NCBI GenBank assembly: GCA_016861085.1
Contig: BOKR01000001.1
Location: 67,271-131,270 of the forward strand
Direction of reading: 5' to 3'
Origin: Patescibacteria group bacterium
GTDB lineage: Bacteria > Patescibacteriota > Microgenomatia > UBA1400 > PJMF01
DNA length: 64,000 nt
Both the position numbers and the translations under genes were made by a program. Under the pieces are notes generated by a model that saw only the letters and a list, made by a program, of their open reading frames with translations, was not told the DNA's origin and ran no database searches. Shown here in pieces: positions 31,309-60,789 of the stretch (positions are counted from its first letter, which is position 1; each line of letters starts with the position of its first letter).

Positions 31309-31803
31309 ATGGACGATACAAATCAGATAAGTGATCAAGTTAGTGCACAAGATGACGCTGTGCAACAGGCTCAACCAACTAGCCAGCAAGTCGCATCAGC
31401 ACCTACGCCAACATCAGCCGCGGCAAATCCAAGTGGCGGTGGGACACAAAAAAACCCTCTCGATGTTCTCGAGCAGCTTTTAAGTGAAATAGATGGTGGT
31501 AAGACGGGTAATGCAACTCCTGCAAAACCGAGTGGTCCAACACCAGAAGAAATTGCGGCTCAAAAAGCTGCCGAAGAACTGGAACAAAGACGAATCGAGT
31601 ATGAACAAAAGCAAGCCCAACAGCAGGTTATTGATCAAGAAAAAATTGATCAACAGCGTCAAGCACTCGTCGAAGAGATGAGTAATGGTACGGCAAACGT
31701 TGCTCGAGCTCAACAAGACGAACAGAAAAAAATTGAGCAGGAGGAGAAGCAACAAGCAGAAGAAGGTTTCGAGATTGTTCAGTTAGATCATACAAAAATT
31801 TGA
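31309..31803 (+). CDS. low-complexity Gln/Glu/Ala-rich hypothetical protein
   Basis: Composition read from the translation. Predicted disordered or coiled-coil. Confidence 0.4.
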   Translation: MDDTNQISDQVSAQDDAVQQAQPTSQQVASAPTPTSAAANPSGGGTQKNPLDVLEQLLSEIDGGKTGNATPAKPSGPTPEEIAAQKAAEELEQRRIEYEQKQAQQQVIDQEKIDQQRQALVEEMSNGTANVARAQQDEQKKIEQEEKQQAEEGFEIVQLDHTKI

Positions 31804-31815
31804 TAAAAGGATAGT

Positions 31816-32505
31816 ATGCCTGGCCCAGGTGGAGCTCCGGGTATGGGGGGAATGAGTCCTCCTGGCGGAGAAATTTCAGAACAACTTGCAAAAATGATGG
31901 GGAGCAGCGCGAAAAGCGGCCCTAGTTCTGGTGGCGGCTCACCAGGATCGGGGCAAATGGGTGCAGCTCAGGTGGCGCAAGCCCAACAAATGTTGGGCCA
32001 GAGTGGCGCAATTCCTGGAGCGCTCGAAGGAAGTGCTGCTGGTAAAACTCCGGGTACTGCTGGTCAAACTGCGACACCGCCAACTCCTCCTCGAGAAGTT
32101 GGAACTATTCAAGAGGAAGTCAAGCGTGGCTTCTCTGATATCTTCACTGGCATAAAGGAATTTTTCAATATAAATACTTGGTTGGGAATTAATCCAAATA
32201 CGCTTGACCCACAACAACAGGCACAGGCTAAACAACTACATTCAAGATATCAACAACTAGATCAGGAACAACAAGCTGTTGCACGTCAAATGTTCGAAGA
32301 AAAAATGCAAAGGAAACGAAAACAAGAAGAAGAAGAGCAACGCAAAAAGCAAATGGAGGCTGAAAAACAGGCTCAATCTTTTGAAATGCCAAGTAGTCCT
32401 CAAAAAGGTGCAGTTGGCCCTGGTGGTGGGAAGAGCAAAAAACAAAATGTGTTGACGAAATTAAAGCAAGACCGAACTACACTTAATAATACCCAAGGCG
32501 AATAA
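31816..32505 (+). CDS. low-complexity Gly/Pro/Gln-rich hypothetical protein with Q/E/K-rich coiled-coil C-terminus
   Basis: MPGPGGAPGMGGMSPPGG ... followed by a charged coiled-coil region. Confidence 0.4.
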   Translation: MPGPGGAPGMGGMSPPGGEISEQLAKMMGSSAKSGPSSGGGSPGSGQMGAAQVAQAQQMLGQSGAIPGALEGSAAGKTPGTAGQTATPPTPPREVGTIQEEVKRGFSDIFTGIKEFFNINTWLGINPNTLDPQQQAQAKQLHSRYQQLDQEQQAVARQMFEEKMQRKRKQEEEEQRKKQMEAEKQAQSFEMPSSPQKGAVGPGGGKSKKQNVLTKLKQDRTTLNNTQGE

Positions 32506-57470: not shown

Positions 57471-58796
57471 ATGGTGAAACAAGATGTCTCTGGCAGAGTT
57501 CCGCCGCAAAATGTTGATGCAGAAACCTCTGTACTTGGTGCCATTTTACTTGACAGTGAAGCAATTGTTGCCGTTGCTGACATCATTAATCCCGAAAGTT
57601 TTTATGTACCTGCACATCAGCATATCTATGCTGCCATGGAAGCATTATTTGAAAAACGCCAACCGATTGACGTTGTTACTCTGACCAATCAAATCAAAAA
57701 AATGAAGAAGTTAACCGAGGTTGGGGGAACTTCAGCGATTGCAGAACTATCAAACGTGGTTTCAACCGCTGCCAATGCAAAACATTACGCTCAGCTGGTG
57801 TCTGAGGCGTATGTAAAACGCCGTCTTATTTCTATGTCTGCAGAGATGAATGAATTGGCGTTTGATCCGGGCAAAGATGTTCTGGATATTATGGATTTAG
57901 CAGAGCAGAGAGTATTTGCTTTGTCTCAAACGCAAAATAAAAAAGCATTTACTCCAATTAAAGATACACTGGTAGAAAGTTTTGAGCGCTTGGATGAGTT
58001 ACAGAAACATTCTGGTGAGTTGCGTGGTGTTCCTACCGGATTTGCGGATCTTGATCGCTGTCTGGCTGGGTTTCAGAAATCTAACTTAATTATTTTAGCT
58101 GCCAGACCTGGTACAGGTAAGACAGCGTTTGCATTAAACATGGCGCAGCACATGTCTGTGGTGTCAAAAAAGAAGGTGGGTTTTTTCTCACTTGAAATGA
58201 GTAGAGAGGAGTTGGTTGACCGGTTGTTGGTGTCTCAGGCTGATATCGACGCCTGGAAATTAAAAACTGGCCGACTTGACCAACAGGATTTTTTGAAGTT
58301 GTCAGACGCAATGGGTGTGTTAGCTGATGCCCAAATTTTTATTGATGACACTCCGGCTTTGACTATTTTCGAGATGCGGACTAGAGCGAGGAGATTGAAG
58401 GTTGAGCATGATATCGATATGTTAGTTGTTGACTATCTGCAGTTGGCTCATGGACGGACCAAGGACAATCGTGTTACAGAGGTGGCTGAAATCTCACAGG
58501 GGCTAAAAAATATTGCCAGAGAGCTTAAAATCCCTGTTTTGGCTTTAGCACAGTTATCTCGTGCAGTTGAGAGTAGAACTGAAAAAACACCCCAATTGTC
58601 TGACTTGAGAGAGTCAGGATCTATCGAACAGGATGCTGACGTGGTGATGTTTTTGTATCGTAAGGATGATAATATTCGTGAAGCTGTAAACTTAAAGATT
58701 TCCAAGCACCGCAATGGTGGCATGGCTGATATTGATCTCTATTTCAGAGGGGATCGTATCAAGTTTTATGGTATGGAGACGCAGAGGGAGATGTAG
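57471..58796 (+). CDS. dnaB: replicative DNA helicase DnaB
   Basis: N-terminal ETSVLGAILLD, Walker A GTGKTAFAL. RecA-like C-terminal domain. Confidence 0.9.
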   Translation: MVKQDVSGRVPPQNVDAETSVLGAILLDSEAIVAVADIINPESFYVPAHQHIYAAMEALFEKRQPIDVVTLTNQIKKMKKLTEVGGTSAIAELSNVVSTAANAKHYAQLVSEAYVKRRLISMSAEMNELAFDPGKDVLDIMDLAEQRVFALSQTQNKKAFTPIKDTLVESFERLDELQKHSGELRGVPTGFADLDRCLAGFQKSNLIILAARPGTGKTAFALNMAQHMSVVSKKKVGFFSLEMSREELVDRLLVSQADIDAWKLKTGRLDQQDFLKLSDAMGVLADAQIFIDDTPALTIFEMRTRARRLKVEHDIDMLVVDYLQLAHGRTKDNRVTEVAEISQGLKNIARELKIPVLALAQLSRAVESRTEKTPQLSDLRESGSIEQDADVVMFLYRKDDNIREAVNLKISKHRNGGMADIDLYFRGDRIKFYGMETQREM

Positions 58797-58897
58797 TTGT
58801 TGAAATAAAATCAAACAAGCCTCCGAACCTTCGGTCCGAGTGAGGCTCTTATCGATTTTATTTCAACAAAGTTAAACCTCACCTTTGCACTATTTTA

Positions 58898-59170
58898 TTA
58901 GGCGCCAGGTTGATATCCAAAGAGTAAATAAACCAGACCACCAGATAAGACGAGAAACATGGCCGCAAATCCAAGGTTAGACTTGAGGTTTTTCATTGAT
59001 TTTTCAGGATCAGGATTGTCGACACTAATAATAATCACAGTTGCAACAATAAACCAGACTACGGCGCGGGCTACAACGGACCAGATGCTATCTACTCTAA
59101 ATATCGATCCAAGGATGTTTTGTAAAATATCCATACCCTTCATCATCCTACATATCTTCCAAAAATGCAA
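58898..59170 (-). CDS. small membrane protein (90 aa), TTG start
   Basis: Two hydrophobic helices. Weak. Confidence 0.25.
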   Translation of the reverse strand: MHFWKICRMMKGMDILQNILGSIFRVDSIWSVVARAVVWFIVATVIIISVDNPDPEKSMKNLKSNLGFAAMFLVLSGGLVYLLFGYQPGA

Positions 59171-59204
59171 GTTTCTTGATATACTACCTGTCTAGTTCTT
59201 TAGT

Positions 59205-59290
59205 GCCGAGGTGGCGGAATTGGTAGACGCGTGGGTCTCAAAAACCCATGAGGCTTAAATCTCGTGCGGGTTCGATTCCCGCCCTCGGCA
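59205..59290 (+). tRNA. tRNA-Leu (anticodon CAA), type II
   Basis: GCCGAGGTGGCGGAATTGGTAGACGCG ... anticodon stem TGGGT/ACCCA with loop CTCAAAA, long variable arm, T-arm GCGGG-TTCGATT-CCCGC, acceptor CCTCGGC. Confidence 0.85.
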
Positions 59291-59369
59291 CAGATAGAAA
59301 CAGGTTTTCTCAAAAGTTCCGCTATTTTGATATATTACTAAAGTTATTTAGACTAATTTAGGTTGTTTG

Positions 59370-59449
59370 TTATTGGCAATTTAGCCTGGATATGAGTCCT
59401 AACTATTGACAATATAGGACTCTTTTGCTATACTAGCGGTTGCCAATAA
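59370..59449 (+). promoter_or_regulatory. near-consensus sigma-70 promoter (TTGACA-N17-TATACT, 59406-59434) bracketed by nested inverted repeats: outer TTATTGGCAA/TTGCCAATAA, inner GAGTCCTA/TAGGACTC around the -35
   Basis: All elements read directly; the repeats are perfect. Confidence 0.5.
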
Positions 59450-59538
59450 TTTGCTAAGGGGATTCATCCCTGGTGCGAGTTGGAGGCGTTGCAAATTCAC
59501 ATTTCTGTTTTTCAAAATCCAAGCTAAAGGTGAAACAA

Positions 59539-59895
59539 ATGAAAACGTTCTTCTACAATCTCTATATCCGTTTTTTGTCTATTTTGGGCGCGTTGACCCT
59601 CAAACAGGCCAATGACGAAAAAACTGCCGTGATCAATGCGATCCGCGCGGCCATGGAAATGGCTGGTGTTAAGCCGGCTGACCTGGTTCGTAGCACAAAG
59701 AATCGCAAACGTGACGCGGCCAAGATTCGTCGTCAGGCTGAAAAAGATGAGGCCGCCGCTCGCAAGCTGGCCGCTGAGAAAGCTGTCCTGGCGAAAGAAG
59801 CTGGTGGCATTGAAACTGCCGCCGATGACGTGTTGAATATCCTGAAGGAAATCAACTTGTCCGCCACGACCGATTTCGACCTGCCCTCCGCCTAA
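59539..59895 (+). CDS. compositionally foreign gene: N-terminal hydrophobic signal/anchor followed by an Ala/Lys/Glu/Arg-rich helical domain; about 58% GC with enterobacterial-like codon usage
   Basis: AAGGTGA RBS 7 nt before the ATG. Codons CTG/CGT/CGC/GCG/GCC predominate, unlike the rest of the window. Followed by a strong terminator. Confidence 0.45.
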   Translation: MKTFFYNLYIRFLSILGALTLKQANDEKTAVINAIRAAMEMAGVKPADLVRSTKNRKRDAAKIRRQAEKDEAAARKLAAEKAVLAKEAGGIETAADDVLNILKEINLSATTDFDLPSA

Positions 59896-59923
59896 CGGCA
59901 ATTTGAAACAACATATGTGAATC

Positions 59924-59960
59924 GAGGCTGCCCTTTAAAAAGGCAGCCTCATTCCGTTTC
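59924..59960 (+). terminator. intrinsic terminator GAGGCTGCCCTTT-aaa-AAGGCAGCCTC
   Basis: Stem of at least 9 bp, then a T-containing tail. Confidence 0.55.
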
Positions 59961-60047
59961 TAGAGGCATTTTCTTTTTTCCTACGCATTATGTAAGATTC
60001 AATTTGTATTATTTACACCGATACTAACCACACTGTATAAAGGACGT

Positions 60048-60284
60048 ATGCTGACAAAATCAGATATCACTAAACTTAAAGAAATTTTCGCAACGAAAGC
60101 TGAACTAAAAGAACTTAAGTCAGATCTTGTCAAACTCAAAGATATGATTCACGAAGTCATTTTTGAACTTAAAGACATGAGGGAAGAATTTATCGCTATC
60201 ACATATAGAAACCGAGATCATTCAGATAAAATTGAGTCCCACGAGGTTAGAATTACAAATTTGGAAAAGAAGTTTTCATCTTGA
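60048..60284 (+). CDS. small coiled-coil hypothetical protein (78 aa)
   Basis: ORF with a candidate promoter TTTACA-N18-TATAAA upstream; heptad-like K/E/L pattern. Confidence 0.35.
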   Translation: MLTKSDITKLKEIFATKAELKELKSDLVKLKDMIHEVIFELKDMREEFIAITYRNRDHSDKIESHEVRITNLEKKFSS

Positions 60285-60288
60285 AAAC

Positions 60289-60789
60289 CTACTTCAACAG
60301 CCAAATCACCACAACTAAAATAATCTGCGGTACTATTCCTACCAAAATATTCGGAGTTGAGTGGTGAAACATGCCATGAAATTCGTTCAGTGGTTTGATA
60401 AACCAAGGTTCCCACCTCAAAAAATTTCTTGGTGCTTCAACTAGATCCGGAGCAATTCCCATCAACGCACCCATCCAGATGTGAAACGTATATGCGTCAC
60501 TCATATCTACAGGCTTGCCAAAATCTTTGAAAAAGAACCAATAAATGAGTCCGGCAGTCAGGGCCAAATCAACCAATTCTAAAAGAATTGCGCTGCTACG
60601 CTTTCTTTTGCCAACAGATAGCCCGGTCCCTACGTCCCAATGTGGAATCCAGTCGCACAAATAATGCATGGCAAGAGTGAGTGGTATGTATAAAGCAGGA
60701 TGGGGGAGCTTACTGGCAATAAAGGCCCCAGTGAGCGAGTGTGGTATAGATAACATGGTAAAGTTTAGTATACTAATTACGCACTGCAT
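60289..60789 (-). CDS. His-rich membrane-associated protein, possibly DUF457/YdjM-like membrane-bound metal-dependent hydrolase
   Basis: TM helices and conserved-looking His/Asp positions (HYLCDWIPHWD, HGMFHHS). Confidence 0.3.
   Translation of the reverse strand: MQCVISILNFTMLSIPHSLTGAFIASKLPHPALYIPLTLAMHYLCDWIPHWDVGTGLSVGKRKRSSAILLELVDLALTAGLIYWFFFKDFGKPVDMSDAYTFHIWMGALMGIAPDLVEAPRNFLRWEPWFIKPLNEFHGMFHHSTPNILVGIVPQIILVVVIWLLK

Follow-up and report, generated by a model that had tools for sequence, protein, structure and literature searches.

Morons are independent transcription units that have been added to phage genomes, such as gene 15 of phage HK97. Their features include a promoter and a terminator of their own, a deviant GC content, and the appearance of extra DNA between genes that are adjacent in relatives (PMC3594210). 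We analyzed a 64-kb stretch of the core chromosome of the Patescibacteria metagenome-assembled genome (MAG) BroJett025 (here called the window; GC content, 38.5%), for which an earlier note, made from the sequence, had pointed to a GC-rich gene behind a strong promoter downstream of a tRNA gene. The region concerned (59341 to 59960) is probably a self-contained, horizontally exchanged, protein-coding cassette in a tRNA-adjacent hotspot, bounded by tRNA-Leu(CAA) on one side and by the promoter of a conserved coiled-coil gene on the other. Its parts follow one another in the order extended −10 promoter, structured leader, 118-codon open reading frame (ORF), and GC-rich hairpin. The cassette resembles a moron in having a predicted promoter of its own, a GC content unlike that of its neighbors, and the status of extra DNA relative to syntenic relatives; the strong hairpin at its end may act as a terminator. 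It differs from morons in its core chromosomal setting and in having no phage or viral matches, and the reuse of a frame with unrelated ORFs lies outside the moron concept. We classify it as a moron-like islet outside a phage, set in a chromosomal hotspot of Patescibacteria and provided with a reusable regulatory frame.

The cassette is also comparable to tRNA-linked islands and islets, with which it shares a position 3′ of a tRNA gene, an atypical composition, a patchy distribution, and a strain-variable cargo. It differs from these in its small size (~0.67 kb) and in the lack of an integrase, a tRNA 3′-end repeat, and mobility genes: a search of the window for a further copy of the last 23 nt of the tRNA, with up to three mismatches, gave none, and no integrase or transposase family of Pfam was found among the genes called within 10 kb on each side. 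As with integron cassettes, a single site in the chromosome has a common promoter region behind which unrelated ORFs are swapped. Unlike in integrons, however, the surrounding genes include no integrase, there is one cassette per site, and the promoter, leader, and terminator travel with or frame the ORF. No attC-like site was recognized at the cassette ends (no dedicated attC search was run).

The site was recovered from approximately 20 related strains by means of DnaB (in GTDB genomes) and the downstream 155/166-aa membrane protein (in a large protein collection). L-numbered loci (L003 to L056) denote the same or a related site in other assemblies or strains. The order dnaB, 82-aa gene, tRNA-Leu(CAA), variable interval, 155-aa gene, lgt, and lspA is conserved, and the neighbors of the cassette (dnaB, tRNA-Leu, lgt, lspA, and rluD) are core chromosomal genes. 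The native left anchor of the variable site is tRNA-Leu(CAA) itself (59205 to 59291, plus strand), placed upstream of the cassette by both ARAGORN and Rfam (tRNA; 61.5 bits) as the earlier note had it; its position is kept in L005 to L014, and <50 nt separate its end from the start of the cassette. The left insertion junction falls in the following spacer (59292 to 59340), in that L005 and L006 have only AGATGTTTT in common right behind the tRNA and homology to the L005 module begins at ~59341 (AAGTTATT). At the other end, alignment to L007 and L045 resumes at ~59961, and the DNA from ~59296 to 59960 is extra relative to L006 and L007. The right neighbor and conserved flank, outside the cassette, is the native 78-aa coiled-coil gene (60048 to 60284, plus strand), which has its own promoter and has homologs in the same place in L007, L009, L011, L038, L041, L045, L046, L048, and L055. 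This gene varies in length through the number of short repeats (68, 78, 79, 80, 96, 110, and 113 aa), with repeat units such as EEFATKKDL in L038 and QLK.EV.QL in L041; the L047 copy is truncated.

The GC-rich cassette occupies the variable interval in the window, L005, L045, L047, and L048. The interval is reduced to 15 to 49 bp in L006 (~15 bp) and in L037 and L051 to L054 (30 to 49 bp), and it holds only a homolog of the native coiled-coil gene in L007, L038/L039, L046, and L055, or that gene together with further AT-rich genes in L009 and L011. Other cargo consists of an AT-rich 162-aa ORF in L040 (L040 4567 to 5055, minus strand), of which L041 to L044 retain remnants; a weakly C92/NlpC-P60-like ORF in L050 (L050 4465 to 4815, minus strand); and a gene ending in an HNH nuclease domain in L056 (L056 931 to 1443, minus strand; Pfam E value, 3.9e−7). 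Since the interval is filled, empty, or differently filled among relatives, the site is a hotspot of insertion and deletion. Together with the synonymous codon bias described below, the absence of the segment from close relatives bears out the proposal of the earlier note that it was acquired horizontally at a tRNA locus. Weak C92/NlpC-P60-like amidase ORFs of intermediate GC content were seen in L047 (5703 to 6296, minus strand), L048, and L050. Several of the loci (L005 to L007 and L012 to L014) come from GTDB records named "uncultured Pseudomonadales bacterium," yet their DnaB sequences and gene order are near-identical to those of this Patescibacteria genome; protein P0027 (NCBI, "Pseudomonadales bacterium"; 1.08-Mb contig) shows the same near-identity, and the Pseudomonadales labels look wrong.

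Comparison of the carriers revealed a conserved frame around exchanged ORFs. In L005, whose DnaB is 95% identical to that of the window, the same promoter and leader follow tRNA-Leu and are then followed by an 88-aa ORF. Identity between the window and L005 is 94% in the tRNA, 87.6% in the upstream gene, and 83.3% in the promoter and leader, whereas the ORFs are 48.8% identical, against a shuffle level of 47.3 ± 1.1. With the ORF at shuffle level and its flanks at 83 to 94%, the ORF has been replaced and has not diverged gradually. The L047 locus, whose 155-aa protein is 79% identical to that of the window, carries a cassette ORF of 186 aa and has three colinear blocks in common with the window. 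Its leader has the block CAAATACACATTTC ahead of a Shine-Dalgarno (SD) sequence GAGGTGAAA, its stop context CCGCCTAACGGC is the same as in the window (12 of 12 positions), and its hairpin is GGGCCCGG. In the window, this stop context and the 3′ untranslated region (3′ UTR) segment AUGUGAAU span 59888 to 59922 (plus strand), and the stop context is common to the L047 and L048 cassettes; a leader motif, CAAAT[T/A]CACATTTC, likewise recurs in the window, L047, and L048. In L045, whose 166-aa protein is 95% identical to its counterpart in the window, we found the 3′ end of another GC-rich ORF with an L047-type hairpin. Thus, three strains with flanking proteins at least 95% identical have three different ORFs in one frame, and the recurring frame consists of the promoter core, the anti-SD block, the GCC-TAA-CGGC stop context, and the downstream junction.

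The L048 allele corresponds to that of L047 minus ~190 nt, comprising the cassette promoter and 5′ stem-loop, and its 185-aa ORF is intact. The deletion appears to be bounded by two GTTTTA repeats, ~600 to 700 nt downstream of tRNA-Leu in window orientation, and the allele may be unexpressed or transcribed by read-through from upstream. When the proteins were compared by Smith-Waterman alignment against shuffles, L047 and the L045 C terminus were related (z = 5.0), and the window ORF scored z values of 0.6 to 1.8 against the others. Candidate shared motifs (an N-terminal F-Y/W-R, M.G[VI].P, and a C-terminal LP..A) were unsupported except for the L047/L045 C terminus.

We searched for the frame elsewhere. 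A 20-nt promoter core and a 21-nt leader pattern gave 0 matches in the JGI metagenomes, and these two patterns and a 36-nt degenerate promoter pattern gave 0 matches in IMG/VR. A 17-mer of the leader did occur in six viral contigs, in every case within unrelated coding sequence, and these hits were set aside as chance. No match to the cassette DNA or proteins was found among E. coli genomes, plasmids, phages, or viral contigs. A diversity-generating retroelement was also considered and rejected, as blastn of the cassette against the window found only the cassette itself (no genome-wide search for a reverse transcriptase was made).

The 118-aa ORF (BroJett025_01140; 59539 to 59895, plus strand; TAA stop at 59893 to 59895) is the only one in the cassette with a start signal, and the coordinates in the earlier note were correct to within 1 nt. 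That note had described an AT-rich beginning followed by codons of about 58% GC in enterobacterial style, foreign to the genome. The GC content is 0.40 in the first 21 codons and 0.557 in the remaining codons, so the later part is indeed GC-rich, at 55.7% and not ~58%. GC content at third codon positions (GC3) is 0.61 in the ORF, compared with 0.31 ± 0.03 (maximum, 0.395) in the 46 ORFs of the window that are at least 200 aa long. From its amino acids and native synonymous usage, a GC3 of 0.30 ± 0.04 would be expected (z = 7.6). The native favorites GCA, AGA, TTA, CTT, and CCA are not used at all, and CTG, TTG, GCC, GCG, CGT, and CGC dominate. The bias is synonymous, and amino acid composition therefore fails as an explanation; the foreign codon usage claimed by the earlier note has thus withstood a check for composition. 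The neighboring genes, used as controls, are at native GC3 (the 78-aa gene, GC3 of 0.308 and z = 0.0; the upstream 81-aa gene, z = 1.2). Elevated GC3 recurs in the other cassette ORFs, L005 (0.625; z = 6.7) and L047 (0.55).

The enterobacterial label is apt for the codon style, with a score on an E. coli codon table of +0.44 bits per codon against −0.26 ± 0.06 for native genes, but it has no counterpart in an E. coli DNA match or a protein relative: a blastn search of 5,426 E. coli genomes with 59441 to 59960 found nothing. The suggestion that a native AT-rich leader had been fused to captured DNA did not hold, since the first 21 codons are foreign as well (GC3 of 0.667 versus an expected 0.32; z = 3.7); they are AT-rich because F, Y, I, L, and N residues set codon positions 1 and 2.

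A native, vertically inherited gene, with a GC content that stems from an Ala/Arg/Gly-rich composition or from selection on expression and with absences that reflect lineage-specific loss, is conceivable in principle. Such an effect of composition is illustrated by the only other GC-rich island of the window (31726 to 32150; up to 0.58 GC), which we used as a control. It lies in a 229-aa ORF (31816 to 32505, plus strand) encoding a low-complexity, Gly/Pro/Ala/Ser/Gln-rich protein next to a 164-aa Gln/Ala/Glu-rich protein (31309 to 31803), and, because its GC3 is native (0.32; z of about 0), its GC excess is fully explained by amino acid composition. Identity to L005 is also similar in the promoter and leader and in the native flanks (83% versus 88%), and the frame could be ancestral to both. 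In the cassette ORF, however, the excess resides at synonymous sites (GC3 of 0.61 versus 0.30), favored native codons are unused, and highly expressed native genes of the window, of the kind of ribosomal proteins or EF-Tu, do not show such codon choice. Moreover, unrelated ORFs stand behind the shared frame, and the site is empty in L006 and L037, which are intermediate between carriers by flanking-gene identity. Vertical inheritance is accordingly extremely unlikely in our judgment.

The earlier note had also raised the possibility of an assembly or contamination artifact, that is, a chimera or a proteobacterial fragment on a Patescibacteria contig. The composition changes abruptly, and contig breaks occur in or next to the cassette: inside it in L003, beside it in L004, 12 nt past the ORF in L005, and inside an ORF in L045. 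These breaks are better explained by coexisting alleles at the strain level. The exact protein, which the NCBI MAG also encodes, recurs with the same neighboring genes in the Logan assemblies from four unrelated runs (DRR258781, SRR8466088, SRR7904081, and SRR31091722). The 756-bp segment that contains the cassette is identical, in the same context, in DRR258781 and SRR8466088, and SRR7904081 and SRR31091722 carry parts of it, the sole change within the cassette being a single-nucleotide polymorphism (SNP) at 59528. Relatives have the AT-rich promoter and leader as well, and E. coli genomes, plasmids, and phages hold no match. As four independent assemblies agree on the locus and its context, a chimera or contamination is excluded for practical purposes. 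The SNP, an A-to-G change in L004 (run SRR31091722), falls inside the SD region and converts AAAGGTGA to AAGGGTGA; L004 has six more SNPs relative to the window, in the 155-aa gene.

The near-perfect promoter reported by the earlier note is present: TTGACA (59406 to 59411) and TATACT (59429 to 59434) are separated by 17 nt and, with a TG-n extension of the −10 box, form a predicted sigma-70-type promoter (plus strand) that agrees with 11 of 12 consensus positions and scores highest in a 2-kb scan. Transcription is predicted to start near 59441. The promoter is kept in L005 (−10 box, TATAAT) and in L047 (TACAAT), and a 38-nt core that includes the promoter spacer and the inner of two palindromes is shared without a difference by the window and L005; L047 matches TATTGACAATATAGGAC at 17 of 17 positions.

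Both of the perfect nested inverted repeats that had been noted around the promoter were found. The outer repeat, with 10-bp arms (TTATTGGCAA/TTGCCAATAA; 59370 to 59379 and 59440 to 59449), flanks the promoter, and its right arm doubles as part of the 5′ stem-loop of the transcript. The inner one, a composite palindrome (59394 to 59422) with 8-bp arms (GAGTCCTA/TAGGACTC), reads on as GAGTCCTA-ac-TATTG-A-CAATA-TAGGACTC, and the symmetry centers, all at 59408 to 59409.5, sit within the −35 hexamer. Of 2,000 dinucleotide-shuffled versions of the 160-nt region, 20 contained a perfect repeat of at least 10 bp and none contained the nested pair. The pattern GTCCTA-N13-TAGGAC occurs once in the window, against an expectation of 0. 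The idea that the repeats are operators applies to the two unequally. The inner palindrome is kept in every promoter-bearing member (L005 and L047; the left arm in L047 has one mismatch), but the outer repeat is specific to this strain and is kept in neither. Conservation of the inner palindrome with the promoter is consistent with a regulator site, and we hypothesize that this candidate operator is bound by a trans-acting dimeric regulator, which would occlude the −35 box and repress the unit. No regulator gene was found in the cassette or adjoining it. As to a regulon, the inner palindrome has no other copy in the window, and ATTGNCAAT, with 6 occurrences versus 2.8 expected, is unconvincing.

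The leader, from the predicted start to the ATG at 59539, is ~98 nt long and begins with a stable stem-loop (59442 to 59487, plus strand; −21.2 kcal/mol; z = −2.6). All 16 base pairs of this stem-loop are retained in L005, with 4 changed on one side and none broken, and L047 has an analogous 5′ stem-loop of other sequence (−22.8 kcal/mol; z = −3.1). The SD sequence AAAGGTGA (59526 to 59533) precedes the ATG, and a UUCAC(A) block (59496 to 59501) can pair with the SD sequence AAAGGUGA in the predicted folds of both the window and L005, so that the UUCAC block may mask the SD sequence in a regulatory role. In addition, AUUCACAU in the leader (59495 to 59511) is perfectly complementary to AUGUGAAU in the 3′ UTR (59906 to 59922), just before the terminator. 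In the predicted fold of the full transcript, this pairing encloses the entire ORF, and L047 has a weaker counterpart, UACAC..UUCG with CGAAGUGUA. With an estimated ~0.09 such 8-bp complements expected by chance, the pairing is only a lead; it could be a fold-back control element or a coincidence. At the right end of the cassette (~59960) stands a GC-rich, terminator-like hairpin (59924 to 59950, plus strand) with a 9-bp perfect stem, which with its extension reaches −21.7 kcal/mol (z = −4.4). The earlier note had ended the ORF at a strong terminator; the hairpin is strong, but the U tract behind it is interrupted, and for this reason a terminator scan made no call. Stable 5′-terminal stem-loops shield bacterial mRNAs from 5′-end-dependent decay, as is known from the leaders of ompA and ermC. 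The 5′ stem-loop and the 3′ hairpin of the cassette would likewise stabilize a strongly transcribed mRNA.

These features recall the hok/sok type I toxin mRNAs, to which the cassette is similar in encoding a small protein with a hydrophobic end, in its long structured leader, and in the possible masking of a ribosome-binding site and pairing of the 5′ and 3′ ends. It differs in that the product is 2 to 4 times longer, no antisense RNA promoter was found, and the evidence for pairing is weak. In a type I or hok-like toxin module, the product would be a small protein that acts on membranes, and folding of the mRNA, through SD masking or 5′-3′ fold-back, would keep it from being translated. The hydrophobic N terminus (MKTFFYNLYIRFLSILGALTL), the conserved structured leader with its UUCAC block, the perfect 8-bp complement between AUUCACAU and AUGUGAAU, and the stand-alone, mobile character of the unit all fit this model. 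Type I toxins usually have <60 aa, however, and the 118- to 186-aa products are far larger. The hydrophobic stretch contains Arg, Asn, and Tyr and has a borderline mean Kyte-Doolittle value (~1.4 by hand calculation), and the L005 and L047 products have no comparable N-terminal helix. Given also the chance expectation of ~0.09 for the 8-bp complement and the absence of a detected antisense promoter inside the cassette, we consider a toxin module of this kind quite improbable.

A GC-rich island in an AT-rich genome is frequently an RNA gene, and we also weighed a structured noncoding RNA gene with a strong promoter and a terminator hairpin, in which the ORF would be incidental. The full transcript folds better than shuffles (z = −3.84, including the pairing of leader and 3′ UTR), although much of this signal comes from the 5′ stem-loop and the terminator. 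Folding of the ORF by itself gives z = −2.35 in the window and z = −2.52 in L047, the protein has no relatives, and an antisense ORF of 125 aa shows how readily long open frames occur in this DNA. Other observations favor a protein. The L005 ORF folds at shuffle level (z = +0.73). The codon position composition of the window and L005 ORFs is coding-like (G1, 0.41; G2, 0.11; A3, 0.12). An SD sequence and an ATG stand at the equivalent place in all family members while the sequence from start to stop is unrelated; such complete replacement would not befall an RNA whose structure is conserved. The L047 and L048 ORFs differ, outside an N-terminal indel, by six synonymous and five nonsynonymous changes, that is, by similar counts despite ~3 times more nonsynonymous sites. 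Rfam searches (Rfam 15; E value of ≤10; 58500 to 60500) returned nothing beyond the tRNA and chance-level matches; at gathering score, the whole window yielded tRNAs only, with no tmRNA, RNase P, 6S, GOLLD, or ROOL RNA, and ARAGORN found no tmRNA. A noncoding RNA gene is hence about as improbable as the toxin module, and we conclude from these sequence features that the GC-rich unit is predicted to encode a protein, with an additional RNA-level role possible.

The predicted 118-aa protein has no detectable relatives. Only the query was recovered from 5.8 billion clusters and by phmmer from 1.84 billion cluster representatives, and tblastn against plasmids and phages gave no match. Profiles of Pfam, PHROGs, PADLOC, and NCBIfam returned chance-level hits only (E values of ≥0.005 for the last three). 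Homology searches with the L005 protein found only itself, and the L047 protein had no match in Pfam, PDB sequences, phages, plasmids, or viral contigs. A literature search by the MAG name found no match. AlphaFold2, run without an alignment, predicted an all-alpha protein with three long helices (residues 2 to 41, 46 to 87, and 91 to 107) at a predicted local distance difference test score of 67 and a predicted template modeling score of 0.27, and a Foldseek search with this low-confidence model against the PDB gave no match. The one profile hit that provides a lead is PF22470 (H-NS N-terminal oligomerization) at residues 22 to 51 (…AVINAIRAAMEMAGVKPADLVR), with an E value of 0.0033 and 17.7 bits versus a cutoff of 24.5 bits; this match is partial, covering 30 of 79 profile positions at the domain end. 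The cassette protein is like H-NS family members in being helical and rich in Ala, Lys, and Glu. It differs from them in lacking a C-terminal DNA-binding domain (Pfam; E value of ≤1), and the other cassette ORFs have no PF22470 match. A relationship to H-NS is a lead only. With low confidence, we suggest that this small variable protein could have an accessory, conflict-type role in interactions with phages, hosts, or competitors, in view of the hypervariable slot, occupied in some relatives by an HNH nuclease or amidase-like gene, the stand-alone unit with its features for strong expression, and the fast turnover of alleles.

Returning to the exchanged protein-coding cassette, which we consider the likely explanation of the locus, its alleles would be swapped among members of the population through homologous recombination at conserved flanks. 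The left flanks would be the tRNA together with the promoter and leader; the right flanks would be the downstream junction together with the coiled-coil gene's promoter. The absence of an integrase and of a duplication of the tRNA end fits homologous recombination. In a more far-reaching version, the frame would be a dedicated expression slot of these ultra-small bacteria that receives unrelated GC-rich ORFs from an external pool without an integrase, at the level of the population and under frequency-dependent selection; we regard this as doubtful but worth stating. The frame would here extend over the palindromic promoter, the leader with its 5′ stem-loop and anti-SD block, the stop context, and the terminator. 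Products of such a slot could be small effectors, immunity proteins, or anti-phage proteins. All alleles are GC-rich in codon style and might thus derive from, or be tuned to, a GC-richer partner or mobile element.

Several points weigh against an exchanged cassette. No library contained a donor or a relative, and a horizontal origin rests on composition and patchy distribution, the latter of which could reflect repeated loss instead of repeated gain. The ORF types, only three complete and one partial, were all found at a single site within a single clade. The U tract of the terminator is not clean, and the folding z scores of −2.4 to −3.8 leave room for a role at the RNA level. What is said of the promoter, the start of transcription, translation, and regulation is predicted, and a function as a conflict protein is a guess from context.

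Patescibacteria (candidate phyla radiation) are bacteria with very small genomes that rely on other cells, and knowledge of their acquisition and expression of accessory genes is scant. The locus described here provides a small, clean example of a slot in the core genome, beside a tRNA gene, that holds different cargo in close strains; in some of these, a conserved frame with features for high expression stands before unrelated ORFs that are foreign in composition and lack relatives. If the alleles prove to be interaction or defense factors, the locus would mark strain-level conflict, and it would also supply a natural strong promoter and leader for genetic tools. Otherwise, it would stand as a well-documented moron-like islet outside a phage.

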